Positions 13,980 through 60,733 of a stretch of 64,000 nt of DNA are shown here, in pieces. The translations under genes were made by a program, and so were the position numbers. The first letter of the stretch is position 1. Each line of letters opens with the position of its first letter. The notes beneath the pieces were generated by a model. That model was not told the origin of the DNA and made no database searches. It saw nothing but the letters and a program-made list of their open reading frames with translations. Source of the stretch: Betaproteobacteria bacterium (GTDB lineage: Bacteria > Pseudomonadota > Gammaproteobacteria > Burkholderiales > SG8-41); NCBI GenBank assembly GCA_046339595.1, contig JBKDUF010000011.1, positions 14,009 through 78,008 of the forward strand. The letters are read 5' to 3'.

Positions 13980-14402
13980 ATGCTGAAGTATCAAATCCAA
14001 GGATTCAACCTGATTGAACTGCTGGTGGCGATCGCCATCATCGGGATTCTTTCGGCCATCGCAATACCCCAATATTTCGCGTACACCATTCGCGGCAAGA
14101 TATCCGAGGCCACTGCTGGGCTGAGCGAGTTGCGGCTGCGCGCCGAGAGATTTTTTTCCGACAACCGCACCTACGTCGGTTTCAATACCACTATCGCCAA
14201 CGCGCGCAATTTCACCTATGCCTGCACCACACCTTCAGCCACCGAGTTCACCTGCACCGCGACGGGTGTTGCCGGTGCGGGCCTGGGCGGTTTTGCCTAC
14301 ACCATCAACCACGCCAACGTGCGCACTTCAACCTTCACCGGCGTCAGCGGCTGGAACAACTCAACCACCTGCTGGGTGACCAAAAAGGGCGAAACGTGCT
14401 GA
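13980..14402 (+). CDS. Type IV pilin (PilE/PilA-like, prepilin-type N-terminal cleavage/methylation domain)
   Basis: MLKYQIQG/FNLIELLVAIAIIGILSAIAIPQY is a class III signal with Gly-1, Phe+1 and Glu+5. There is a C-terminal Cys pair (CWVTKKGETC). An AAGGTG RBS precedes the ATG. GC content is visibly lower than in the neighbours. Confidence 0.85.
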   Translation: MLKYQIQGFNLIELLVAIAIIGILSAIAIPQYFAYTIRGKISEATAGLSELRLRAERFFSDNRTYVGFNTTIANARNFTYACTTPSATEFTCTATGVAGAGLGGFAYTINHANVRTSTFTGVSGWNNSTTCWVTKKGETC

Positions 14403-33237: not shown

Positions 33238-34140
33238 ATGAACACCGCACCGTCGTCTTCGCATACCCTGCTCACCCGCGCCCTGCGCACCCTCGCGATG
33301 GCCCTGGGCCTCGCCGCACTCACCGCCGCACCCGTCCTGGCACAACAGGCACAGCAGGTGCTGAGGGTCACCACCATCCCCGAGGAAGCCGCCACCGAAC
33401 AGATCCGCAAGTTCGGCCCGATCACGCGCTACCTTGAACGCACCCTCGGCATGAAAGTCGAGTTCACCCCGGTCAACGACTACCCGGCCGCGGTCGAGGC
33501 GCTGGTCAACCGGCAGGTGGATCTCGTCTGGTTCGGCGGCTTCACCCACGTCCAGGCGCAGCTGCGCTCCGGCGGCAAGGTGATCCCGATCGCGCAGCGC
33601 GAAGAAGACAGCCAGTTCCGCTCGGTGTTCATCGCCCAGACCGACTCCGGCATCAAGACCCTGCAGGACCTGCGCGGCAAGCAGGTCAGCTTCGGCTCGC
33701 AGTCGAGCACTTCGGGCCATCTGATGCCGCGCAGCTTCCTGCTCGAAGCCAAGATCGATCCCGAAAAGGACTTCAAGCGCATCGCCTACTCCGGCGCGCA
33801 CGACGCCACGATCGCCTCGGTGGTCGGCGGCCGCGTTGATGCGGCGGCACTGGACATCACCGTCTGGCGCAGGTTCGTCGAAGACAAGAAGGTGGACACC
33901 AGCAAGGTCAACGTGTTCTTCACCACGCCGCCGTTCTTCAACTACAACTGGTCGGTGCACGCCGACATGCCGGCCGCCCTGCGTGAACGCATCACCAAGG
34001 CCCTGCTCGCACTGTCGATGAACGATCCCGAAGGCAAGGAAATCCTGACGCTGAACCGCGCCACCAAATACATCCCGACCCGTGCCGAGAACTACAAGGG
34101 CCTCGAAACCGCAGGCCGCAGCGCCGGCCTGATCAAGTAA
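33238..34140 (+). CDS. PhnD-family (phosphonate/phosphite-type) ABC transporter periplasmic substrate-binding protein
   Basis: Signal peptide, then LRVTTIPEEA...VDLVWFGGFTHVQA...FGSQSSTSGHLMPR, which are typical PhnD family features. An AAAGGAA RBS is present. Confidence 0.8.
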   Translation: MNTAPSSSHTLLTRALRTLAMALGLAALTAAPVLAQQAQQVLRVTTIPEEAATEQIRKFGPITRYLERTLGMKVEFTPVNDYPAAVEALVNRQVDLVWFGGFTHVQAQLRSGGKVIPIAQREEDSQFRSVFIAQTDSGIKTLQDLRGKQVSFGSQSSTSGHLMPRSFLLEAKIDPEKDFKRIAYSGAHDATIASVVGGRVDAAALDITVWRRFVEDKKVDTSKVNVFFTTPPFFNYNWSVHADMPAALRERITKALLALSMNDPEGKEILTLNRATKYIPTRAENYKGLETAGRSAGLIK

Positions 34141-34150
34141 GCCGCGCGCC

Positions 34151-34981
34151 ATGCACATCAGCCTGCGCGGGCTGGCAGCCCGCCATCCCGCGGCCGCGCC
34201 GGACAGCGTGCCCGCGCTGCAACCGGTCTCGCTCGACATTACGGCCAGCGAGCAGGTTGCGGTGATCGGCCCCTCCGGCGCCGGCAAGACCACCCTGCTG
34301 CACGCACTCGCCTGCGCCCTCAGACCGGCGGCTGGCGGTTTGACGCTGGACGGCGTGGATCCATGGACGCTGCCGGTGTCGAAGCTGCAGCAGTTGCGGG
34401 GACGGCTGTTTCTGGCGCCACAGACGCCGCCGCTGCCGCCACGGCAGCGGGTCATCTCCGCGGTGCTGGCCGGCCGGCTGCCGCGGCAATCGCTGCTGGC
34501 CAGCCTGCGTTCACTGATCTATCCCACCGGCATCGCGCAGGCCGAATCCGCGCTCACCCGCTTCGACCTCGCGCACAAGTTGTGGGACCGCGTTGACCGC
34601 CTCTCCGGCGGTGAACGCCAGCGTGTGGGCCTCGCACGGGCGCTGCTGTCCTCGGCTTCGCTGTGGCTGGTGGATGAGCCGCTGTCCTCGCTGGATCCCT
34701 CGCGCGCGAAGCTGGCGATCGAGACCCTGACCGCCGCCGCGCGGGAAGCCGGCGCCACGCTGGTATGCACGCTGCACCAGGTCGATGTCGCAACTCGCTT
34801 CCCGCGCGTGCTCGGCCTGCGCGACGGGCGGCTGCACTTCGACCTGCCTGGCGCCGAAGTCAGCGCCGAACGCCTGCGCGAGCTCTATGCCCAGCATGAA
34901 CACGAACTGCTGGGCGGACCTGCCGCCGCGGGCGACACCCCGCCACCGCCGCCACAGGCGCCGGTGATGTACTGCCGCTGA
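34151..34981 (+). CDS. PhnC-type ABC transporter ATP-binding protein
   Basis: Walker A GPSGAGKTT, signature LSGGERQRV, Walker B LWLVDEPLSSLD. Confidence 0.9.
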   Translation: MHISLRGLAARHPAAAPDSVPALQPVSLDITASEQVAVIGPSGAGKTTLLHALACALRPAAGGLTLDGVDPWTLPVSKLQQLRGRLFLAPQTPPLPPRQRVISAVLAGRLPRQSLLASLRSLIYPTGIAQAESALTRFDLAHKLWDRVDRLSGGERQRVGLARALLSSASLWLVDEPLSSLDPSRAKLAIETLTAAAREAGATLVCTLHQVDVATRFPRVLGLRDGRLHFDLPGAEVSAERLRELYAQHEHELLGGPAAAGDTPPPPPQAPVMYCR

Positions 34982-34997
34982 GAAGCCGCCAGCCATC

Positions 34998-35846
34998 ATG
35001 CAAGAACCGGCGGCCGCACCGGCACTGCCTTCCCCCCGACACCGCGACCCGGCTTGGACAGGACGCGTGTTCTGGCTGCTGGCCGCCGCCGTGCTGGTCG
35101 CACCGGCGCTGGTCGCCACCGAATTCAAGCCTTGGCTGCTGTTCGAGCCGGATGCCCTTAAGGCCACCCGGCGCTTCATCGCCGATTTCCTGCCGCCGAA
35201 AATCGAAGGCGAGTTCCTCTGGCTGGTGCTGGTCGAGTGCTGGCGCACTGTGGCCATCGCCACCGCCGGCATGGCGCTGGCCCTGGTGATCGCGATTCCG
35301 CTGACACTCATTTCAACCAACGCGATCTCGATCTCCGCGCTGGGTGGACGCATGCACACGCTGCCTCTGTTCGTGAGGCAGGCAACACGCTGGCTGCTGA
35401 TCGTGCTGAGGAGCATCCCGGAACTGGTGTGGGCGCTGGTGTTCGTGCGCGTGGTCGGCCTCGGCCCCACCGCCGGCGTGCTCGCCATTGCGCTCACCTA
35501 CGGCGGCATGCTGGGCAAGGTATACGGCGAGATCCTCGAGAGCGATGAAACCCACACCACCCGCACGCTTCTGCGCAACGGCGCGGGCCGCCTGCAGGCC
35601 TTTTTCTACGGGCTGCTGCCGCACAGCGCGCCCGAACTCACCAGCTACACGGTGTACCGCTGGGAATGCGCGATCCGCTCCTCCGCGGTGCTCGGATTCG
35701 TCGGCGCCGGCGGTCTCGGCCAGCAGATGGACAACTCGATGAAGATGTTCCAGGGCTCGGAAGTGGCAACCATGCTGATCGTGTTCATGCTGCTCGTCGC
35801 GCTTGCCGACCAGGTCAGCGCATGGCTGCGGAAGAATCTCGCATGA
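34998..35846 (+). CDS. PhnE-type ABC transporter permease
   Basis: Polytopic protein. The conserved PhnE C-terminal block is YRWECAIRSSAVLGFVGAGGLGQ. Confidence 0.85.
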   Translation: MQEPAAAPALPSPRHRDPAWTGRVFWLLAAAVLVAPALVATEFKPWLLFEPDALKATRRFIADFLPPKIEGEFLWLVLVECWRTVAIATAGMALALVIAIPLTLISTNAISISALGGRMHTLPLFVRQATRWLLIVLRSIPELVWALVFVRVVGLGPTAGVLAIALTYGGMLGKVYGEILESDETHTTRTLLRNGAGRLQAFFYGLLPHSAPELTSYTVYRWECAIRSSAVLGFVGAGGLGQQMDNSMKMFQGSEVATMLIVFMLLVALADQVSAWLRKNLA

Positions 35847-36685
35847 ATGCCCCGCGCCAGGATTCAGCCAAGGCCGCCAATGAAGCCTGGCGGATGCCGC
35901 CGCGGCTGTTCAGCGCGCGCTGCACGATGTGCTGGTTCCTGTTCGGCCTCGTCGCGCTGACCGCGGCGAGTTTCTGGACACTCGACCTGCAGTGGGCAAG
36001 GTTCCTCTCCGCCGACGCCCTGCGCAAGATGGGCCGCTTCCTCGGCGAGCTGATGTCGCCATCCACCGACCCTGCCTTCCTGCTCAAGCTCGCGCGCGCG
36101 AGCTTCGAGACGCTGGCGATGTCGGCGCTGGGCCCGCTGCTCGCGGCCAGCGCCGGTCTCGCGCTGGCGCTGCCCGCGAGCCGCACCCATGCCGCGGACC
36201 CTGCCTGGTGGCGCGCGCCGACCCGGCTCGCGCTCAACGCGCTGCGCTCGATCCCGGAACTGGTCTGGGCTGCGCTGCTGATCATTGCCGCCGGCCTCGG
36301 CCCCTTTGCCGGCACGCTGGCACTGGCCCTGCACACCACCGGCGTACTCGGCCGGCTGTTTGCCGAAGCGGTCGAAAATGCGCCGCCGGGGCCGGCCTTC
36401 GCGCTGCGCACCCGGGTCGTCGGCGAACTGGGCGTGTTCTGCTACGCCACGCTGCCGCAGATCCTGCCGCAGCTGCTCTCCTACACCCTGTATCGCTGGG
36501 AGAACAACATACGCGCTGCTGCGGTGCTCGGCGTGGTGGGCGGCGGCGGGCTCGGCCAGATGCTGGCCTTCCACATGGGGCTGTTCCACATGAACGAGAC
36601 CAGCACTGTGCTCATCGCGATGCTGCTGCTGGTCGCGCTGGTGGATGCGCTGTCGTATGTCGCGCGCTGGATCATGCAGCGCTGA
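35843..36685 (+). CDS. PhnE-type ABC transporter permease (second copy)
   Basis: ATGA start/stop overlap with the preceding permease. Conserved block [23 protein letters not shown]. Confidence 0.85.
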   Translation: MNAPRQDSAKAANEAWRMPPRLFSARCTMCWFLFGLVALTAASFWTLDLQWARFLSADALRKMGRFLGELMSPSTDPAFLLKLARASFETLAMSALGPLLAASAGLALALPASRTHAADPAWWRAPTRLALNALRSIPELVWAALLIIAAGLGPFAGTLALALHTTGVLGRLFAEAVENAPPGPAFALRTRVVGELGVFCYATLPQILPQLLSYTLYRWENNIRAAAVLGVVGGGGLGQMLAFHMGLFHMNETSTVLIAMLLLVALVDALSYVARWIMQR

Positions 36686-52387: not shown

Positions 52388-53353
52388 ATGCACGCCATGC
52401 TGCCCCTGCTTGAACAGAGCGACTTTCCGGCCATCCGCCGGCGGGCGCCGGACACCCTGCAGGTCAACCTTGGCTACAAATGCAACCAGAGCTGCCTGCA
52501 TTGCCATGTCAACGCCGGGCCGACACGCACCGAGCTGATGGCGCGCGAGACCATCTTCGAGGTGGTTGCCTTTCTCAAGGCGGCGCGGATCCGGACACTC
52601 GACATTACCGGCGGCGCACCGGAACTCAATCCGCATTTCCGCCTGCTGGTGGAATCGGCACGCCAGCTCGGCGTGCGCGTGATCGACCGCTGCAACCTGA
52701 CCATCCTGTTCGAACCCGGCCACGAAGACCTGGCGGAATTTTTCGCCGCGCAGCAGGTCGAGATCACCGCCTCGATGCCCTGTTACCTGGAGGACAACGT
52801 GGATCGCCAGCGTGGCGACGGCGTGTTCAAGTCCAGCATCCGCGCGCTGCAAACCCTCAATGCGCTGGGCTACGGCCGGCCCGGCACCGGCCTTGTGCTG
52901 AACCTGGTCTACAACCCGCAGGGGCCCGTGCTGCCGCCGCCGCAGGCGCCACTGGAGAGGGACTACAAGCAGCACCTGGGTGAAGCCCACGGCATCGTCT
53001 TCAACCAGCTTTACGTGCTGGCCAACATGCCGATCCAGCGCTTTGGCAGCACGCTGGTGAGCAAGGGCCAGTTCGATCCCTACATGCAATTGTTGAAGAG
53101 CACCAGCCGCACCGAAAACCTGGAGACCGTGATGTGCCGCACGCTGCTGTCGGTGGACTGGCAGGGTTATGTCTACGACTGCGATTTCAACCAGATGCTC
53201 GGCCTGCCGCTGGCCTGGAAGGGCAAACCGCGCACGCACCTGCGCGAGCTGCTCGGCGCCGACCTCGACGGCAACCCGATCGCCGTGCGCGACCACTGCT
53301 ACGGCTGCACCGCCGGCCAGGGCTCGAGCTGCGGCGGTGCGCTGGAAAAATGA
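52388..53353 (+). CDS. arsS: Radical SAM/Cys-rich-domain protein of the ArsS type (annotated in databases as arsenosugar biosynthesis radical SAM (seleno)protein)
   Basis: The radical-SAM cluster is NLGYKCNQSCLHCH (CxxxCxxC). The C-terminal Cys-rich tail is DHCYGCTAGQGSSCGGAL. Start at MHAMLPLLEQSDFP (52388). Confidence 0.8.
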   Translation: MHAMLPLLEQSDFPAIRRRAPDTLQVNLGYKCNQSCLHCHVNAGPTRTELMARETIFEVVAFLKAARIRTLDITGGAPELNPHFRLLVESARQLGVRVIDRCNLTILFEPGHEDLAEFFAAQQVEITASMPCYLEDNVDRQRGDGVFKSSIRALQTLNALGYGRPGTGLVLNLVYNPQGPVLPPPQAPLERDYKQHLGEAHGIVFNQLYVLANMPIQRFGSTLVSKGQFDPYMQLLKSTSRTENLETVMCRTLLSVDWQGYVYDCDFNQMLGLPLAWKGKPRTHLRELLGADLDGNPIAVRDHCYGCTAGQGSSCGGALEK

Positions 53354-53384
53354 TCACCCGCCCTTCCACCGAGGAATCATCACC

Positions 53385-54269
53385 ATGAACTTTCGTATGT
53401 GGGTCGCAGGATGTGCCGCCCTTCTGCTCGGTTTCGGCACACAGGCCATTGCCCAATCCTCCCAATCCGGCACCCTGCGCTTCGGTGTAGGCCTGTTCCA
53501 GCCGGACAAGGAACGCAACGACGCCACCTACCGGCCACTCGCCGACCATCTGGCGCAGCAACTCGGCCGCAAGGTCGAACTGCGCACCGTCGATACCTGG
53601 GAAGGGCTCGCGCTGTCGCTCGCCAACGGCGAAACCGACATCGCGCTGATGGGGCCTTGGGGTTATGTGCTGGCCAATCACCAGGCCGGCGCGCAGGCGG
53701 TATCCACCATCCTCTATGACGGCAAACCGGAATACTTCGCGATCATCGTCACCCACCCGAAAAGCGGCATCCAGCGCCTGGATGACCTGAAGGGACGCAG
53801 CTTCGCTTTCGGCGACAAGGGCTCGACCTCGGGTTATCTGATTCCCTTCCACCAGTTCCAGCGCATGGGTATCGATCCCGACAAATTTTTCAGCCGTGTG
53901 CTCTACACCCGACACCAGGCGATCCAGACCCAGGTCACGCGTGGCGAGCTCGATGCCGGCGCCGATTTCAACCGCAACCGCGACACCATGATCAGCGAAG
54001 GCCTGATCAGGGCCGAGGACAGCCGCATCATCTGGACCTCTGCGCCGCTGCCCAACGACGCCGTCGCCGTCAACACCACGCTGGCGAAGGATGCCGCCTT
54101 TGTTGCAAGGCTGCGCAAAGCGCTGGAAGGCGTGGGCCCGGCGCTGGCCAGCAACCCGAAACTGCTGCCTCCGCGTTACACCGGGTTCGTGTCCCGCGAC
54201 AACGGCTTCTACAAGCCGATCCGCGACGCCGGCCTTGAGACCGGGAAGCTGACCCCGGCCAAACGCTGA
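53385..54269 (+). CDS. PhnD-like periplasmic substrate-binding protein, paralog of 33238..34140
   Basis: Signal peptide MNFRMWVAGCAALLLGFGTQAIA. LRFGVGLFQ...TDIALMGPWGYV...FAFGDKGSTSGYLIP matches the PhnD family pattern. A GAGGAA RBS is present. Confidence 0.75.
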   Translation: MNFRMWVAGCAALLLGFGTQAIAQSSQSGTLRFGVGLFQPDKERNDATYRPLADHLAQQLGRKVELRTVDTWEGLALSLANGETDIALMGPWGYVLANHQAGAQAVSTILYDGKPEYFAIIVTHPKSGIQRLDDLKGRSFAFGDKGSTSGYLIPFHQFQRMGIDPDKFFSRVLYTRHQAIQTQVTRGELDAGADFNRNRDTMISEGLIRAEDSRIIWTSAPLPNDAVAVNTTLAKDAAFVARLRKALEGVGPALASNPKLLPPRYTGFVSRDNGFYKPIRDAGLETGKLTPAKR

Positions 54270-54272
54270 GCG

Positions 54273-55151
54273 ATGTTCAAGTCCGGCACGGATCGCACGC
54301 TGCACACCTGGATCGGGGCCTACCTGCTGCTGGTCGCGCTGATCATCAGCCAGTTCATCGCGGCTGGCGATTTCTCCTTCGGCCGCAAGCCCTGGGAGAA
54401 TTTCAAGAAAACCGCGGCCGAGCTGTCGCAGCCGAGTTTTCTCAACATCTGGTTTGGCTCCGATCGCGTTGAATACCGCTCCGATGACGGCCGCGTGCTG
54501 CGGGTGGAGAACCCGCGCGAACGCGAGCGCGAGTTCCTGGCTGCGCTCGGACGCGCAACCTGGACCACCTTCCAGGTGGCCACCCTGGGCTCGTTGCTCG
54601 CCGCCGTGGCTGCGCTGCCCTTCGGCCTGGCCGCGGCACGCAACATGATGTTGCCGCCCGTCATCGCGCAGACGGCGCGGGTCACGCTCGACGTGTTCCG
54701 CTCCATCCATACGCTGGTGTTCGGCCTGCTCTTCGTCGGCGTGATCGGCCTCGGGCCCATGGCCGGCGTATTGGCCATCGCCGCGCACTCCTTCGGCACC
54801 TACGGAAAGCTCTACGCCGAATCCATCGAGACCGCCGATGCCCGCCTGATCCAGTCGGGTGTGGCGCTGGGCCTGAGCCCGCTGCAGACCCTGGTCTACG
54901 GTCTGTGGCGCACCATGCTGCCGCGCTGGATTTCGGTGCACCTGTATGTCTGGGAATTCAATGTCCGCGACTCCACCGTGCTCGGTCTTATTGGCGCCGG
55001 CGGCCTGGGCCTCCTGCTGTCGGAAGCGGTATCGTTGTTCCAGTGGGGACGGCTGGCGACGATCCTGATCGCGATCGTGGCACTGGTGGTCGCCTTCGAC
55101 AACCTGAGCCGCCACATCCGCCACGCCGTCAACCGGCCGCGGGAGCACTGA
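54273..55151 (+). CDS. PhnE-like ABC transporter permease (no cognate ATPase gene adjacent)
   Basis: Polytopic protein. The conserved block is YVWEFNVRDSTVLGLIGAGGLG (compare the PhnE copies at 35-36.7 kb). There is a 3-nt gap after the binding-protein gene. Confidence 0.75.
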   Translation: MFKSGTDRTLHTWIGAYLLLVALIISQFIAAGDFSFGRKPWENFKKTAAELSQPSFLNIWFGSDRVEYRSDDGRVLRVENPREREREFLAALGRATWTTFQVATLGSLLAAVAALPFGLAAARNMMLPPVIAQTARVTLDVFRSIHTLVFGLLFVGVIGLGPMAGVLAIAAHSFGTYGKLYAESIETADARLIQSGVALGLSPLQTLVYGLWRTMLPRWISVHLYVWEFNVRDSTVLGLIGAGGLGLLLSEAVSLFQWGRLATILIAIVALVVAFDNLSRHIRHAVNRPREH

Positions 55152-55152
55152 C

Positions 55153-56148
55153 ATGAACGATACCCACCCGGGCCGCAGCTGCCCGCTGCATTACCGTTAC
55201 GCGGCATCCTCGCTCGATCGCGCGCCGGAAATCACGACTGACACGCTGTATGTCGCAGGCGGGCTCTACGGCAACCGGCCCGCGCTGCACGCGCTAGAAG
55301 CCATGGCCGCGCAGGAGGACGCAGTCCTCGCATTCAACGGGGACTTCAACTGGTTCAACATCGATGCCGCAGCGTTCGCCGACATCAACAGCGGCGTGCT
55401 GCGCCACCATGCGCTGCGCGGCAACGTCGAGACCGAACTCGCCGGGGACGATGACGGCGCCGGCTGCGGCTGCGGGTATCCGGCCACGGTCGGCGACGCC
55501 GAGGTCGCCCGCTCCAACGCCATCCTTGCCAGGCTGCGCGAAACCGCGCGCGCCGCGCTATCACTGCGCGCACGCCTGGCTGCGCTGCCAATGACACTCA
55601 CCGCCGAGGTCGGTGGCCTGCGCGTGGCCCTGGTCCACGGCGACTGCGAATCGCTCGCCGGCTGGAGTTACGATGAATCGGCCCTGCGCGATGCTGCCGG
55701 CGTCGGCCGGGTGGCCGCGCATTGCGCGTCCGCCCGCGCCCGCGTGGTCGCCAGCAGCCATACCTGCCTGCCGGTGGCACTGCGCTTCAGGGCCGGCGGC
55801 CGCGACTGCGCGCTGTTCAACAACGGCGCCGCGGGCATGCCCAACTTCGCCGGCACCGGCTTCGGCATCGTCACCCGCATCGCGACAAGCCCGGCGCCGC
55901 TGCCCGCGCTCTACGGCACGGTGCTCGACGGCGTATATATCGACGCGCTGCCGCTGCATTACAACCGCGAGGCCTGGCAGCACGAGTTCGACGCGCAATG
56001 GCCCGAGGGCAGTGATGGCGCGATGTCCTACGCCGCGCGCATCCGCAACGGCCCGCGCTACGGGCTCAACCGCGCCATGGGGAACGGTATCCGGGTCAAC
56101 AGCAGCCTGCTGCAGCAACTGCAATCCGTTTCAGCAAAGGAAGAATAA
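55153..56148 (+). CDS. Metallophosphoesterase-like protein with degenerate active-site motifs
   Basis: Motif-like blocks are, in order: YVAGGLYGN (DxH lost), FNGDFNWF (GD kept), LRGNVETE (GNHE to GNVE), LVHGD, and SSHTC (GHxH to SHTC). The alignment was done by eye only. Confidence 0.5.
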   Translation: MNDTHPGRSCPLHYRYAASSLDRAPEITTDTLYVAGGLYGNRPALHALEAMAAQEDAVLAFNGDFNWFNIDAAAFADINSGVLRHHALRGNVETELAGDDDGAGCGCGYPATVGDAEVARSNAILARLRETARAALSLRARLAALPMTLTAEVGGLRVALVHGDCESLAGWSYDESALRDAAGVGRVAAHCASARARVVASSHTCLPVALRFRAGGRDCALFNNGAAGMPNFAGTGFGIVTRIATSPAPLPALYGTVLDGVYIDALPLHYNREAWQHEFDAQWPEGSDGAMSYAARIRNGPRYGLNRAMGNGIRVNSSLLQQLQSVSAKEE

Positions 56149-58280
56149 TGAATAAAAACAGGGCGTTACTGGCCATCATCGTAGTCGCCGCGGTGATCGC
56201 GTTTTTCGCCCTCGGGCTGCAGCGCTATCTGTCGCTGGAGTATTTCCAGTCGCAGCGCGGCGCAATCGAGGCGCTGGTCGCCGCGCACCCGCTGCGCGCG
56301 GGCCTGCTGTTTTTCGCGGCCTATGTCGCCGTCACCGGCCTCTCTCTGCCCGGCGCGGCGATCCTGACCCTGGTCGCCGGCGCGATCTTCGGCCTGCTCT
56401 GGGGCACCGTGATCGTGTCCTTCGCCTCGACGCTGGGCGCGACGCTGGCCTTTCTGGCGTCGCGCTTCCTGCTGCGCGACTGGGTACAGCAGAAATTCGG
56501 CGACCGCCTGCGCACTGTCAACGAAGGCGTCGCGCGCGAAGGCGGCTTCTACCTGTTCGCGCTGCGCCTGGTGCCGGTGTTTCCGTTTTTCGCGGTGAAC
56601 CTGCTGATGGGCCTGACGCCGATGCGCACCTGGACCTATTGCTGGGTCAGCCAGCTCGGCATGTTCGCCGGCACGGTGGTTTACGTGTATGCCGGGACCC
56701 AGCTCGGCGAGTTCCGGATATCGGCAGGACTGATCGGCGCATTCGTGCTGCTCGGCCTGTTCCCGCTGCTGGCCAAAAAAATGCTCGATGCGCTGAAGGC
56801 GCGCAAGGTCTATGCCGGCTGGAAAAAACCCGCGCGCTTTGACCGCAACCTGGTAGTGATCGGCGCCGGCGCGGCCGGACTGGTCTCGGCCTACATTGCC
56901 GCAGCGGTCAAGGCCAAGGTCACGCTGGTGGAAAAACACCGCATGGGTGGCGACTGCCTGAACACCGGCTGCGTGCCATCGAAAGCACTGATCAAGTCGG
57001 CCAAGCTGGCGGCCACAATGCGCAGGGCGAGCCATTACGGCCTGAAGGACAGCAGTGCCGATTTTGATTTCGCCGAGGTCATGGAGCGCGTGCAGCGGGT
57101 GATCCGCGACATCGAGCCGCATGATTCGGTCGAGCGCTATACCCGGCTGGGCGTGGAATGCCTCGAGGGCGAGGCGAACATCACCTCGCCGTGGTCGGTC
57201 GAAATCCGGACCGCCGCCGGCAAGCAGACGCTGACCACGCGCGGCATCGTCATTGCCGCCGGCGCGCGGCCCTTGGTGCCGCCGATCCCCGGCATTGACG
57301 AGGTCGGCGCGCTGACCTCGGATACCGTGTGGAACCTGCGCGAACTGCCGAAGCGGCTGGTTGTGCTCGGCGGCGGGCCCATCGGCTGCGAGCTGACCCA
57401 GTGTTTCGCGCGCCTCGGTGCGCAGGTGACGCAGGTCGAAATGCTGCCCCGGCTGATGGTGCGGGAAGACCCGGAAATCTCGGCGGTGGTCGAGACGAGG
57501 TTCCGCGATGAAGGCATCCGCGTGCTCACCGGTCACCAGGCGCAGCGATTCGCCTTGGAAAACGGCGAGAAAGCGCTCTACTGCGAAGCCGGCGGCCAGT
57601 CTGTGCGCATCGCCTTCGACGCCGTGCTCTGCGCGGTGGGCCGCGTCGCCAACACCAGCGGTTATGGCCTGGATGCACTCGGCATTCCGGTGACCAAGGC
57701 ACGCACCGTGGAAGTCAACGAGTTCATGCAGACGAAGTACCCCAACATCCTCGCCTGCGGCGATGTCGCCGGACCGTACCAGTTCACCCACACCGCGGCG
57801 CACACTGCCTGGTACGCGGCAGTCAACGGCCTCTTCGGCAGCCTCGGTAAATTCCGCGCCGATTTTTCCGTGATTCCCTGGGCCACCTTCACTGACCCCG
57901 AAGTCGCCCGCGTCGGCCTCAACGAAACCGAGGCGGGGGACCGGAATATCCCCTACGAAGTCACCATCTACGGCATCGACGACCTCGACCGCGCCATCGC
58001 CGACGGCAACGCCCACGGCCTGGTGAAAGTGCTGACCGTGCCCGGCCGCGACAGAATCCTCGGCGCCACGATAGTCGGCGAGCACGCCGGCGACCTCATC
58101 ACCGAATTCGTGCTGGCGATGAAGCACGGCATCGGTCTCAACAAGATACTCGGCACCATCCACATCTACCCGACGCTGGCCGAAGCCAGCAAATACGTGG
58201 CCGGCAACTGGAAACGCGCCCACGCCCCGAAACGATTGCTGGAATGGGTGGAGCGGTTTCACGCCTGGCGCCGAGGCTGA
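56148..58280 (+). CDS. Fusion protein: N-terminal DedA/TVP38/TMEM64 (SNARE-associated) membrane domain plus C-terminal class I pyridine nucleotide-disulfide oxidoreductase (mercuric reductase/dihydrolipoamide dehydrogenase-like)
   Basis: The first 230 aa or so are polytopic (LSLPGAAILTLVAGAIFG...LRLVPVFPFFAVNLLMG). Next come FAD-binding VVIGAGAAGL, the redox-active disulfide GGDCLNTGCVPSK, NAD-binding VVLGGGPIGCE, and the C-terminal His-Glu region HIYPTLAEA. The start codon shares 1 nt with the upstream stop (TAATG). Confidence 0.85.
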   Translation: MNKNRALLAIIVVAAVIAFFALGLQRYLSLEYFQSQRGAIEALVAAHPLRAGLLFFAAYVAVTGLSLPGAAILTLVAGAIFGLLWGTVIVSFASTLGATLAFLASRFLLRDWVQQKFGDRLRTVNEGVAREGGFYLFALRLVPVFPFFAVNLLMGLTPMRTWTYCWVSQLGMFAGTVVYVYAGTQLGEFRISAGLIGAFVLLGLFPLLAKKMLDALKARKVYAGWKKPARFDRNLVVIGAGAAGLVSAYIAAAVKAKVTLVEKHRMGGDCLNTGCVPSKALIKSAKLAATMRRASHYGLKDSSADFDFAEVMERVQRVIRDIEPHDSVERYTRLGVECLEGEANITSPWSVEIRTAAGKQTLTTRGIVIAAGARPLVPPIPGIDEVGALTSDTVWNLRELPKRLVVLGGGPIGCELTQCFARLGAQVTQVEMLPRLMVREDPEISAVVETRFRDEGIRVLTGHQAQRFALENGEKALYCEAGGQSVRIAFDAVLCAVGRVANTSGYGLDALGIPVTKARTVEVNEFMQTKYPNILACGDVAGPYQFTHTAAHTAWYAAVNGLFGSLGKFRADFSVIPWATFTDPEVARVGLNETEAGDRNIPYEVTIYGIDDLDRAIADGNAHGLVKVLTVPGRDRILGATIVGEHAGDLITEFVLAMKHGIGLNKILGTIHIYPTLAEASKYVAGNWKRAHAPKRLLEWVERFHAWRRG

Positions 58281-58299
58281 ATGTCGCCAGCGGTTTTGA

Positions 58300-58570
58300 A
58301 CTTAAACCCCTTGTGAGCCGCCGAGCAGCACAGCGGTTTCGGGGGATGTCGGCGAGCACTGGGCGAGCAGCGCAAGCCTCACCCGCAGCAACACAGCATC
58401 TCGCCCACGGCGATGGCCATCTTCGAGCGCTCACGCGAGTTGCGCAGCCGCCCGAAATCGCGAGCAGCACAGGGCAGCCCGGAGGGCCGGCGAGCCAGGG
58501 CGGCCTTTTCTTTGGTTACTTTCTTTTGGCCGCACAAAAGAAAGTGACTAGCCGCCGGGCTACCCCCGGC
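58300..58570. repeat. Complex GC-rich intergenic repeat element with internal direct repeats and a long AT-rich hairpin
   Basis: gagcagcacag occurs at 58323-58333 and 58462-58472. A 14-bp hairpin is formed by gttactttcttttg (58515-58528) and caaaagaaagtgac (58535-58548), with one G-U pair. Its translation gives low-complexity pseudo-ORFs on both strands. Confidence 0.5.
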
Positions 58571-58593
58571 GAACTTGACTCTGCAATGACACT

Positions 58594-59430
58594 ATGAATA
58601 TGAGAAAAATTCTCCTCACTCTCCTGCTTGCAGCACTACCCCTGACGGCGCACGCCCAATCCTTCGACCACGACCACAAAGCCTGGTCCGCCATGCTGAA
58701 AAGGCACGTTGTCCTCATCGACGGCGGCAAGGCCTCGCAGGTGCGCTACGCCGGCTTCGCGCAGGACCGCGGCGAACTCAAGGCCTACCTTGCAACGCTG
58801 TCCAGGGTTACGCCGGCCGAATTCAATGCCTGGGACAAGGCGCGGCAGATGGCCTTCCTGATCAATGCCTACAACGCCTTCACGATCGAAAAAATCCTGA
58901 CGCGTTACCCGAACATCCAGTCCATCTGGGACTTCGGCAAGGTCTTCGGCAACCCGTTCAAGGACCGCTACTTCACTCTGCTCGGCCGCGGTTTCTCGCT
59001 CGACATGATCGAGCACGACACGCTGCGCAAACCCGGCGTCTACGACGAACCGCGCGTGCATTTCGCGGTGAACTGCGCCTCGGTGGGCTGCCCGATGCTG
59101 CGTGAGGAAGCCTATGTCGCCGCGCGACTCGACGCACAGCTGGAAGAGCAGACGCGACGCTTCCTGTCCGACCGCAGCCGCAACCGCTACAACGCGCGGG
59201 ACAATGCGCTGGAGGTTTCCGAAATCTTCAGATGGTTCAGCGTGGACTGGACCAGCGGCTACCGTGGCCTGGAAGGGAAAACACCGCCGATCACCTCGCG
59301 CGAGCAGTGGTTCGGGCGGCATGCGGCCCTGCTTGCGGACAGCGCCGAGCATCAGGCCCTGCTGCGGTCGGGCCAGTTCCCGCTGCGCCATCTCGACTAT
59401 GATTGGACGCTCAATAACGCCCGAAAATGA
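58594..59430 (+). CDS. DUF547 domain-containing protein, secreted/periplasmic
   Basis: Signal peptide MNMRKILLTLLLAALPLTAHA. The DUF547-like core is AFLINAYNAFTIEKIL...EPRVHFAVNCASVGCPML. Confidence 0.75.
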   Translation: MNMRKILLTLLLAALPLTAHAQSFDHDHKAWSAMLKRHVVLIDGGKASQVRYAGFAQDRGELKAYLATLSRVTPAEFNAWDKARQMAFLINAYNAFTIEKILTRYPNIQSIWDFGKVFGNPFKDRYFTLLGRGFSLDMIEHDTLRKPGVYDEPRVHFAVNCASVGCPMLREEAYVAARLDAQLEEQTRRFLSDRSRNRYNARDNALEVSEIFRWFSVDWTSGYRGLEGKTPPITSREQWFGRHAALLADSAEHQALLRSGQFPLRHLDYDWTLNNARK

Positions 59431-59436
59431 CCCTGC

Positions 59437-60123
59437 ATGACCCTGTCGATCATCGTCCCGGTGTTGAACGAAGCAGAGGGCATCGTTGCCTCGCTGCAGG
59501 CCCTGGAGCCGCTGCGCGAACGCGGCTGCGAGGTCATCGTGGTGGACGGCGGCAGCAGCGACAACACGGTGGCGCTCGCCATCCCTCTGGCTGACCAGCT
59601 GCTCGTCACCGGCGCCGGGCGCGCGCGCCAGATGAATGCCGGCGCCGCCGCGGCAATCAAGGAAATCCTGTGCTTCCTGCATGCCGACACCCGCCTGCCC
59701 GAGGCCGCCGACGGGCTGATCCGCGCGGGGCTTGCGCGCAGCCGGCGCAGCTGGGGACGGTTCGATGTGCGCATTGAGGGGCGCCATCCGCTGCTGCGCG
59801 TGGTGGCGACGCTGATGAACTGGCGCTCACGGCTAACCGGCATCGCCACCGGCGACCAGGCGATGTTTGTCACCCGCTCGCTGTTCGAGGCCGCGGGCCG
59901 CTTTCCCGAAATCGCGCTGATGGAGGACATCGCGTTCAGCCACCTGCTCCAACGCTACGGACCGCCGCTGTGCATCGCCCATCGCCTGAGCACCTCGGGC
60001 CGGCGCTGGGAGAAGCACGGCGTGCTGCGCACCGTGGTCCTGATGTGGCGGCTGCGCCTCGCCTACCGGCTGGGCGCCGATCCGGATCAGTTGGCTGCGC
60101 GTTATGTCCGCCACGACCGCTGA
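59437..60123 (+). CDS. Family 2 glycosyltransferase of the rSAM/selenodomain-associated 'transferase 2' type (TIGR04283-like)
   Basis: MTLSIIVPVLNEAEGIVASLQALEPLRERGCEVIVVDGGSSDNT is a GT-A N-terminus. Its position with ArsS and DUF2064 partners supports the call. Confidence 0.75.
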   Translation: MTLSIIVPVLNEAEGIVASLQALEPLRERGCEVIVVDGGSSDNTVALAIPLADQLLVTGAGRARQMNAGAAAAIKEILCFLHADTRLPEAADGLIRAGLARSRRSWGRFDVRIEGRHPLLRVVATLMNWRSRLTGIATGDQAMFVTRSLFEAAGRFPEIALMEDIAFSHLLQRYGPPLCIAHRLSTSGRRWEKHGVLRTVVLMWRLRLAYRLGADPDQLAARYVRHDR

Positions 60124-60733
60124 AACTGCGATCCTGGTGTTCGCAAAGGCGCCGCTGGCGGGATACGCCAAAACCCGGCTGATCCCGCTGCTCGGTGCCG
60201 AGGGCGCAGCACAGGCGCAGACGCAACTGCTGCGGCACAGCCTCGCCACCGCCGCTTCCGCGGCGCCGCGGCAACTGCAGCTGTGGTGCGATCCGGATAC
60301 CACGCACCCGGAGCTGCAGGCGGCGACTGCGCGCTTCGGCGCAACACTGCAGACTCAGCTGGGTGCCGACCTCGGCGCGCGCATGGCCCATGGTTTTGGC
60401 ATGGCGCTGGCGGAGGTGCCTGCGGCGATCTGCATCGGCACCGACTGCCCCGCCCTCACCGTCGCGCACCTGCAGCAGGCGGCGGCACGGTTGCGCGATG
60501 GCTGCGCCGCGGTGCTGGTGCCGGCCGAAGACGGCGGCTATGCGCTGATCGGACTGCGTCGCCCGGTCCAGGACATATTCAGCGGCATCGAATGGGGCAG
60601 CGACCGCGTGCTGGCGCAAACCCGTGAGCGCTTGCGCGCGCGCGGCCTGCGCTGGGGTGAACTCGAAACCCTGTGGGATGTCGATCGACCCGCAGACTGG
60701 CTGCGCCTGCTGCGCAGCGGCTTGCTCTCCTGA
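60104..60733 (+). CDS. DUF2064 glycosyltransferase-like protein of the rSAM/selenodomain-associated 'transferase 1' type (TIGR04282-like)
   Basis: AILVFAKAPLAGYAKTRL...IGTDCP...PAEDGGYALIGL are typical DUF2064 motifs. There is a 20-nt overlap with the preceding GT2 gene. Confidence 0.75.
   Translation: MSATTAETAILVFAKAPLAGYAKTRLIPLLGAEGAAQAQTQLLRHSLATAASAAPRQLQLWCDPDTTHPELQAATARFGATLQTQLGADLGARMAHGFGMALAEVPAAICIGTDCPALTVAHLQQAAARLRDGCAAVLVPAEDGGYALIGLRRPVQDIFSGIEWGSDRVLAQTRERLRARGLRWGELETLWDVDRPADWLRLLRSGLLS

Follow-up and report, generated by a model that had tools for sequence, protein, structure and literature searches.

An ArsS cluster conserved across the order

We analyzed a window of 64,000 nucleotides (nt; positions 14,009 to 78,008 of contig JBKDUF010000011.1, here C11) from a betaproteobacterial metagenome-assembled genome (MAG; GCA_046339595.1). 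The MAG has 3.3 Mb in 142 contigs, is 98% complete, and has uncultured Burkholderiales/Betaproteobacteria MAGs as its nearest relatives. [quoted passage not shown] The features of the cluster, and a related gene set upstream of it, are as follows.

52388..53353, + strand: ArsS, radical SAM protein with a Cys-rich DUF3641 C-terminal domain (TIGR04167, PF12345, PF04055)
53385..54269, + strand: PhnD/PtxB/HtxB-family periplasmic binding protein with a signal peptide (PF12974, TIGR01098)
54273..55151, + strand: PhnE-type ABC permease (TIGR01097)
55153..56148, + strand: 331-amino-acid (aa) Cys4 phosphoesterase-fold protein (AlphaFold [AF2] model and Foldseek)
56148..58280, + strand: fusion of a DedA/VTT domain and a class I FAD-dependent pyridine nucleotide-disulfide reductase (PF09335, PF07992, PF02852)
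58281..58593, no strand: spacer with two hairpins (inverted-repeat scan, comparison with relatives)
58594..59430, + strand: periplasmic DUF547 protein with a signal peptide (PF04784)
59437..60123, + strand: family 2 glycosyltransferase, GT2 (TIGR04283)
60104..60733, + strand: DUF2064 protein of the CofC/MobA-like nucleotidyltransferase fold family (TIGR04282, PF09837)
33418..36622, + strand: paralogous phnD-phnC-phnE-phnE set, 18 kb upstream of the cluster (tblastn)

An ORF check agreed with an earlier reading of this DNA, made from its sequence alone (hereafter, the sequence-only reading), on the eight ORFs, their plus strand, their coordinates, and their spacing, the gaps being 31, 3, 1, −1, 313, 6, and −20 nt in order. 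Profile searches upheld its family assignments for seven of the eight proteins; its metallophosphoesterase label holds at the level of the fold only, with no sequence-family match. The cluster sequence was found again in freshwater DNA metagenome runs, and the one metatranscriptome that we checked, a tiny data set, gave no match.

We surveyed a sample of 301 high-quality genomes from 144 genera of the order, and we compared gene neighborhoods at 35 ArsS loci and at 80 loci of the phosphoesterase-like gene. ArsS was found in 107 of the 301 genomes and in 51 of the 144 genera. The recurring gene order runs from ArsS through an optional transporter to the phosphoesterase-like protein, the DedA-reductase, DUF547, GT2, and DUF2064. 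Since this order recurs in dozens of genomes from many families, the arrangement is far from chance, and the locus comparison bore out that the six genes flanking ArsS are its conserved neighbors across related genomes.

Three of the partner families were confined to genomes with ArsS. The phosphoesterase-like protein occurred in 54 of the 301 genomes, all of them ArsS positive, and in none of the 194 ArsS-negative ones (p 6e-30; the co-occurrence counts given here and below ignore shared ancestry), its gene often lying on a contig other than that of ArsS. The subfamily of the binding protein was present in 23 genomes (23/23 ArsS positive) and a 462-aa multi-pass permease, described below, in eight (8/8). 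The PhnD-PhnE(-PhnC) genes were located immediately upstream of the phosphoesterase-like gene, even where this module lay away from ArsS. Such all-or-none ties to ArsS across many families are hard to explain otherwise. What is new here is that, in the 301-genome sample, no genome without ArsS has the orphan Cys4 phosphoesterase-fold family or either of two unrelated transporters.

The Cys4 phosphoesterase-fold protein and its redox partners

The 331-aa protein had no match in Pfam or NCBIfam, and a profile of its family found no match among PDB sequences. Its AF2 model (predicted local distance difference test [pLDDT] score, 92) has a calcineurin-like phosphoesterase fold. The best Foldseek matches were 3qfn, 1nnw, and 3rqz (probability, 1.0), the nearest solved structures being SapH (3qfn), PF1218608, and a Sphaerobacter metallophosphoesterase. 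The protein thus resembles metallophosphoesterases of the SapH/YfcE/PF1218608 type in its fold (E, 8e-10; template modeling score, 0.72 on the target) and in one intact metal site, whose four ligands D64, N91, H162, and H203 are kept in 91 distinct homologs with identities as low as 38%. It differs from them in lacking any sequence-level match, in an altered second site that is missing the DxH motif and the last His, and in four added cysteines, C10, C105, C107, and C205, that are invariant in the same homologs. The full dinuclear set (DxH, GD, GNHE, H, GHxH) is therefore incomplete, with motif I reading GGLYGN, motif III GNVE, and motif V SHTC. Arsenate reductases have arisen from two unrelated phosphatase folds, namely, the low-molecular-weight protein tyrosine phosphatase (LMW-PTP)-type ArsC and the Cdc25-type Acr2. 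Like these, the Cys4 protein would place catalytic cysteines on a scaffold built to handle phosphoryl groups, in a setting that involves arsenic, but its fold is unrelated to theirs and the analogy is a lead only.

The next gene in the cluster encodes a membrane-bound redox module. The VTT domain (PF09335, 81.7 vs 33.9 bits) spans residues 71 to 184 and is followed by Pyr_redox_2 and Pyr_redox_dim domains, with a redox motif, C270xxxxC275, that is invariant in 79 homologs. The protein shares FAD and NAD(P)H domains and the CxxxxC motif with MerA and other class I flavoprotein disulfide reductases, but it scores under the cut-offs for MerA (TIGR02053, 361 vs 454 bits), Lpd, and GR, has no Cys pair at its C terminus, and carries the fused DedA/VTT membrane domain. 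The DUF547 protein (PF04784, 91.3 bits vs a cut-off of 27) has its own invariant pair, C161xxxxC166, conserved in 60 homologs. Its AF2 model (pLDDT, 85) matched no PDB fold at an E value of ≤0.001, a sequence search gave no match either, and judging from the model its fold appears to be an unsolved one. GT2 scored 274 bits under TIGR04283 (cut-off, 182), and the DUF2064 protein scored 196 bits under TIGR04282 (cut-off, 134), matched PF09837, and gave a weak match to CofC (TIGR03552). Our literature searches found no functional work on TIGR04282, TIGR04283, DUF3641, DUF547, or the DedA-reductase fusion.

The 313-nt spacer divides the cluster between the DedA-reductase and DUF547 genes. Although it had been described as filled with repeats, it is only partly made up of them, with a 12-nt word that occurs three times and an inverted repeat of 14 nt. 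Two adjacent hairpins within 58507 to 58570, at 58515 to 58548 and about 58553 to 58570, lie directly upstream of the DUF547 gene and are followed by the word AACTTGA. Both hairpins, with one compensatory base-pair change, and the word are shared with relatives, the hairpins specifically with the genus-level relatives L071 and L045. The spacer had no Rfam match, consensus promoter and terminator scans of it were empty, and a search within its own genome ruled out that it is a dispersed repeat. The hairpins could be an operator, an mRNA-stabilizing element, or a processing site inside the operon.

In some relatives, other genes are inserted next to the phosphoesterase-like gene. A patatin-like phospholipase gene stands between it and the DedA-reductase gene in one locus (L143:9042-10343), which is a hint of a lipid product or substrate, and unannotated gaps of similar size are found in L124, L127, and L149. 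Two further, lineage-specific inserts encode redox enzymes: an HI0933-like flavoprotein, between ArsS and the phosphoesterase-like gene (L094:8643-9971), and a protein with an MsrA domain, whose gene separates PhnC from the phosphoesterase-like gene (L150:4470-5696). A secreted DUF302 protein, absent from the genome of the window, is encoded beside ArsS clusters either divergently upstream of ArsS (L071, L073, L076, L078, L079, L082, L083, L090, and L093) or between PhnC and the phosphoesterase-like gene (L034:13894-14400).

Entry modules are exchanged in one slot of the ArsS cluster

The transporter slot of the cluster holds PhnD-PhnE with or without PhnC, the 462-aa permease, or nothing. In the window it holds PhnD-PhnE. 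The permease gene (L042:10576-11964 on the minus strand, and seven further genomes) was found in the sample solely between ArsS and the phosphoesterase-like gene, adjoining both; the protein belongs to no Pfam family, has a faint match to sodium/solute symporters, and is a candidate for a dedicated transporter family. In a maximum likelihood tree of 90 ArsS proteins, the ArsS of the window was nested (100/98) in a clade of 14 rows, the remaining 13 of which all come from permease-type clusters, with 89% identity to its sister in L071. This position indicates that PhnD-PhnE took the place of the permease in this slot, and did so recently. The PhnD-PhnE state needs seven changes for seven tree rows, and the swap was therefore made repeatedly. 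Entry modules are thus exchanged in one slot of the ArsS cluster.

The binding protein scored 190 bits under PF12974 and 164 bits under TIGR01098 (cut-off, 112), falling under the cut-offs of the PhnD equivalog TIGR03431 (164 vs 261 bits) and of the putative selenate binder TIGR04553 (100 vs 250 bits). PhnE scored 223 bits under TIGR01097, just above the cut-off of 217. Among solved structures, the hypophosphite binder HtxB (5me4; 168 bits over the full length) is by far the closest to the binding protein, while PtxB, PhnD, ArrX, and AioX match it at 50 to 80 bits. In HtxB, W52, N128, and F158 block a third oxygen and D206-R178 forms a cap (PMC5700983). The protein of the window retains the tryptophan (W72) and the capping pair (D225, R197) but has Ser in place of N128 and His in place of F158, i.e., PtxB-type ligands of a third oxygen. 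None of the five residues (W72, S147, H177, R197, and D225) varies among nine ArsS-linked members. This combination matches the "hybrid" HtxB/PtxB pocket class, which has no assigned ligand (PMC5700983). Such a pocket appears to accommodate an anion that has no more than three oxygens and whose remaining position is a hydrogen, a lone pair, or a methyl group. Arsenite, methylarsonate, selenite, and phosphite all answer this description, so that the pocket does not discriminate between the elements. AioX and ArrX provide a precedent in the PhnD family for binding arsenic oxyanions (arsenite and arsenate), but they are distant (52 to 57 bits) and partner with two-component sensors instead of serving as transporter subunits.

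The sequence-only reading had counted half an importer here, correctly: the ATPase gene beside PhnD-PhnE is absent. In this respect, and in its linkage to ArsS and not to phosphite or hypophosphite oxidation genes, the module differs from the HtxBCDE and PtxABC importers (HtxB, 5me4; PtxB, 5o2j). The nearest phnC-like sequence, at C11:48240-48896 (window 34232-34888), has 39% identity to the cluster-linked PhnC of genome G042 and is flanked by PhnD-like and PhnE-like tblastn matches; it is possible that this phnD-C-E-E paralog lends its ATPase to the cluster importer. Among the relatives, a PhnC gene follows PhnE in L034, L107, L148, and L150 and is absent from the MAGs L092, L093, and L098, which have exactly the order of the window. 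The absence here of a gene present in the former four could mean that PhnD-PhnE is a non-functional remnant in a cluster that works without import, but we consider this quite unlikely, given that both ORFs are intact and score above their family cut-offs, that the pocket residues are all invariant, that the ATPase-less order recurs in three other MAGs, and that a phnC paralog lies 18 kb away. What sets the window apart is an HtxB/PtxB-hybrid ABC importer that has been swapped in for the permease and that, if functional, operates without an ATPase of its own.

The importer may also have landed in the operon by chance, scavenging phosphite or hypophosphite, in which case ArsS would take its arsenic from an unrecognized methyltransferase or use inorganic As(III) that enters by general routes. 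The closeness of the binding protein to HtxB, the missing ATPase gene, and the absence of a dedicated transporter from many phosphoesterase-type clusters (42 of 90 tree rows) are consistent with this explanation. It has, however, to account for a binding-protein subfamily that is ArsS positive in 23 of 23 genomes and usually encoded directly upstream of the phosphoesterase-like gene, for repeated swaps into ArsS clusters whose slot is filled in sister genomes by another ArsS-bound permease, and for the loss of the HtxB residues that exclude a third oxygen. The cluster also contains no gene for phosphite or hypophosphite oxidation, there being no further ORF between the eight genes (ptxD and htxA were not searched for elsewhere). 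We regard a chance insertion as unlikely.

The arsenic link of the core and a putative pathway

ArsS of the window scored 455.5 bits under TIGR04167 (cut-off, 300; model positions 2 to 303) and 181 bits under PF12345. It is the Cys form, with no in-frame TGA. The CxxxCxxC motif (Cys32, Cys36, and Cys39) and seven further cysteines are at least 97% conserved among 91 homologs, and the C-terminal C250, C265, C304, C307, and C315 are conserved. ArsS adenosylates trivalent dimethylarsenic, DMAs(III), to 5′-deoxy-5′-dimethylarsinoyl-adenosine, DDMAA (PMC13598754), an activity known for the cyanobacterial enzyme only, and the Synechocystis enzyme uses the products of ArsM, whose gene is cotranscribed (bioRxiv 10.1101/2022.09.23.509062). 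The cluster resembles the ArsM-ArsS system of Synechocystis sp. PCC 6803 in that its ArsS, TIGR04283, and TIGR04282 proteins score above the curated cut-offs and in that relatives within the same taxonomic order hold this core beside an ArsM-like gene. It differs in that its genome has no ArsM, in that an importer and a Cys4 phosphoesterase-fold protein lie inside the cluster, and in its conserved DedA-reductase and DUF547 proteins, which have no role in the published two-gene scheme. NCBIfam already labels the core set (TIGR04167/TIGR04282/TIGR04283) "arsenosugar biosynthesis."

In seven relatives from several families (L051 to L057), a gene for an ArsM-like methyltransferase of about 346 aa occurs in the same locus as ArsS, GT2, and DUF2064, the DedA-reductase being kept in five of these loci and DUF547 in three. 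In four of them (L052 and L054 to L056), a probable DUF3047 protein stands between the core and the ArsM-like gene that lies downstream of it; three of the four continue with an LMW-PTP ArsC-like gene and/or a PiT-type transporter gene and one with an aquaporin gene. The secreted DUF3047 protein, encoded after DUF2064, was confirmed by Pfam in L053:9766-10530, L056:10726-11463, and L061:5514-6239. It occurs in clusters linked to ArsM and, once, in a cluster that has the phosphoesterase-like gene, and it adds a further orphan family to those tied to this neighborhood. In the tree, ArsM-linked ArsS proteins were twice sisters to those linked to PhnD-PhnE and the phosphoesterase-like gene (L150/L051, 100/99; L148/L056, 94/52, a weakly supported pair). 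Since the ArsS proteins of the two cluster types interleave, they are the same enzyme. This interleaving and the linkage of the core to ArsM-like, ArsC-like, and transporter genes in relatives make arsenic the best reading for the core. The sequence-only reading had proposed that the arsenosugar paradigm does not explain the system. This holds for the supply of substrate to ArsS, which the paradigm leaves unexplained here, but not for the core, which it still accounts for in view of the ArsM-linked relatives and the interleaved ArsS proteins.

ArsM was missing from the window, as had been noted from its sequence, and likewise from the whole genome in searches with two profiles (NF008823, best score 62.7 bits vs a cut-off of 263; the arsenosugar-type NF038099, 19.7 vs 400 bits) and by tblastn with the cluster-linked ArsM-like protein of a relative (best score, 54 bits). 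The ars resistance genes and selD, also reported missing, are indeed absent from the window, but the genome has both on other contigs. Contig C81 (27518 to 30442) carries an ars operon of arsR, an ArsI/CadI-family vicinal oxygen chelate gene with a Cys-Cys pair (137 bits vs a cut-off of 116), an LMW-PTP-type arsC-like gene, and acr3. The arsI-family gene would fit an organism exposed to methylated arsenic made by others, without proving it. The selD gene contains an in-frame TGA and therefore probably encodes a selenocysteine-containing SelD; it is divergent from a 648-aa ORF that is tentatively MnmC-like, judging from its N-terminal sequence only (both within C138:10294-13407).

Across the sample, ArsM-like genes (E value of 1e-30 or better) were present in 35 of 107 ArsS-positive and 10 of 194 ArsS-negative genomes (odds ratio, 8.9), so that about two thirds of the ArsS-positive genomes have none. 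Within loci, an ArsM-like gene was found in 0 of 95 with the phosphoesterase-like gene vs 7 of 21 without it. The ArsM-less, importer-type ArsS cluster is a widespread variant of the known pathway.

We propose that the cluster imports a ready-made or inorganic arsenical, which is reduced or handed over and then adenosylated by ArsS, a reading that we consider about equally likely to be right or wrong. The ArsS step is taken by homology from the biochemistry of the cyanobacterial enzyme, and the others we infer from linkage, co-occurrence, and conserved residues. The HtxB/PtxB-like protein would bind an arsenical oxyanion that carries no more than three oxygens, one position being taken by something else, possibly methylarsonate or dimethylarsinate from other microbes, or arsenite, and PhnE would import it with an ATPase borrowed from the phnDCEE paralog. 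The Cys4 phosphoesterase-fold protein might then receive the compound and act as a thiol reductase of its pentavalent form or as an As(III) carrier, a role made plausible by the arsenate reductases that evolved from phosphatase folds in two unrelated cases. Dithiols may be regenerated with NAD(P)H by the flavoprotein disulfide reductase part of the DedA fusion, on the cytoplasmic side. ArsS would add the 5′-deoxyadenosyl radical to the trivalent arsenic, yielding a 5′-deoxy-5′-arsinoyl-adenosine. After the loss of adenine, the CofC-like TIGR04282 protein could activate the arsenoribose and the TIGR04283 GT2 transfer it to an acceptor, and the DedA domain and the periplasmic DUF547 protein with its CxxxxC motif may handle the product at the membrane or across it.

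Several results weigh against this proposal. There is no ATPase ORF within 52388 to 60733; the pocket of the binding protein would probably suit phosphite or selenite equally; and there is a residual chance that an arsM was overlooked in a MAG of 142 contigs. The best match of the linked methyltransferases is arsenite methyltransferase, yet they score under every curated ArsM cut-off, and "ArsM-like" is therefore the right term for them. The phosphoesterase-like protein was found in 16 of 35 ArsM-like-positive and 38 of 72 ArsM-like-negative ArsS genomes (p 0.54). We accordingly rejected it as a strict replacement of ArsM; with no exclusion at the genome level, it is not a simple substitute, and the exclusion holds within loci only. 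Finally, selD tracks ArsS as strongly as ArsM does, being present in 102 of 107 ArsS-positive and 128 of 194 ArsS-negative genomes.

This last association would also be expected if the element were selenium, with selenite or a related species being imported, reduced by the DedA-reductase, and built into a seleno-sugar or seleno-lipid by ArsS and the transferases; the arsenosugar name would then be valid for the ArsM-linked relatives only. The in-frame TGA of the genome's own selD is in line with this, as are the selenocysteine forms within the ArsS family (PMC13188914) and a DedA protein linked to selenite uptake (PMC11422209). Selenite would fit the three-oxygen pocket with its aromatic cap, and the binding protein weakly matches TIGR04553, at 100 bits. 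That score is far under the cut-off, however, and selD is present in 76% of all genomes of the order, which makes its association with ArsS weak evidence that may reflect lifestyle or genome size. In addition, the selD of this genome is on a different contig from the cluster; ArsM-like genes are linked in seven relatives and ArsC-like genes in three; the ArsS proteins from both cluster types are interleaved; and none of the annotated gap genes (ArsM-like, ArsC-like, and transporter genes) is selenium related, in an annotation without a screen for selD, selA, or selU. Selenium therefore seems to us to have a low probability.

Reduced phosphorus can be imagined as a substrate of ArsS itself, which would adenosylate a phosphite or hypophosphite tautomer and pass the product to the phosphoesterase-fold protein. 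The known mechanism of ArsS is a radical addition to a lone-pair center, the binding protein is nearest to HtxB and PtxB, and the phosphoesterase fold of the partner retains one metal site intact. We nevertheless hold such carbon-phosphorus chemistry to be very improbable, as it is without precedent, no phosphonate biosynthesis or catabolism genes are adjacent, and this ArsS is 89% identical to that of its permease-type sister and interleaved with the ArsM-linked forms. Stated more generally, there is a slim chance that the importer-type ArsS adenosylates some other lone-pair oxyanion, selenite or reduced phosphorus, delivered by the HtxB/PtxB-like binder. If true, enzymes would form carbon-selenium or carbon-phosphorus bonds by a route not yet described, with the Cys4 protein, DedA-reductase, and DUF547 as dedicated handling proteins.

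To our knowledge, the characterization of arsenosugar synthesis reaches no further than ArsM and ArsS, its first two steps, and covers neither the later enzymes nor any bypass of ArsM, and we know of no bacterial reductase of pentavalent methylarsenicals that has been identified. On the preferred arsenic reading, the cluster gives concrete candidates for the uptake and reduction of methylated or inorganic arsenic. It also places the DedA-reductase fusion, DUF547, and the "hybrid" binders of the PhnD family in a functional context for the first time, and if its substrate is not arsenic, it would represent a new radical SAM chemistry.

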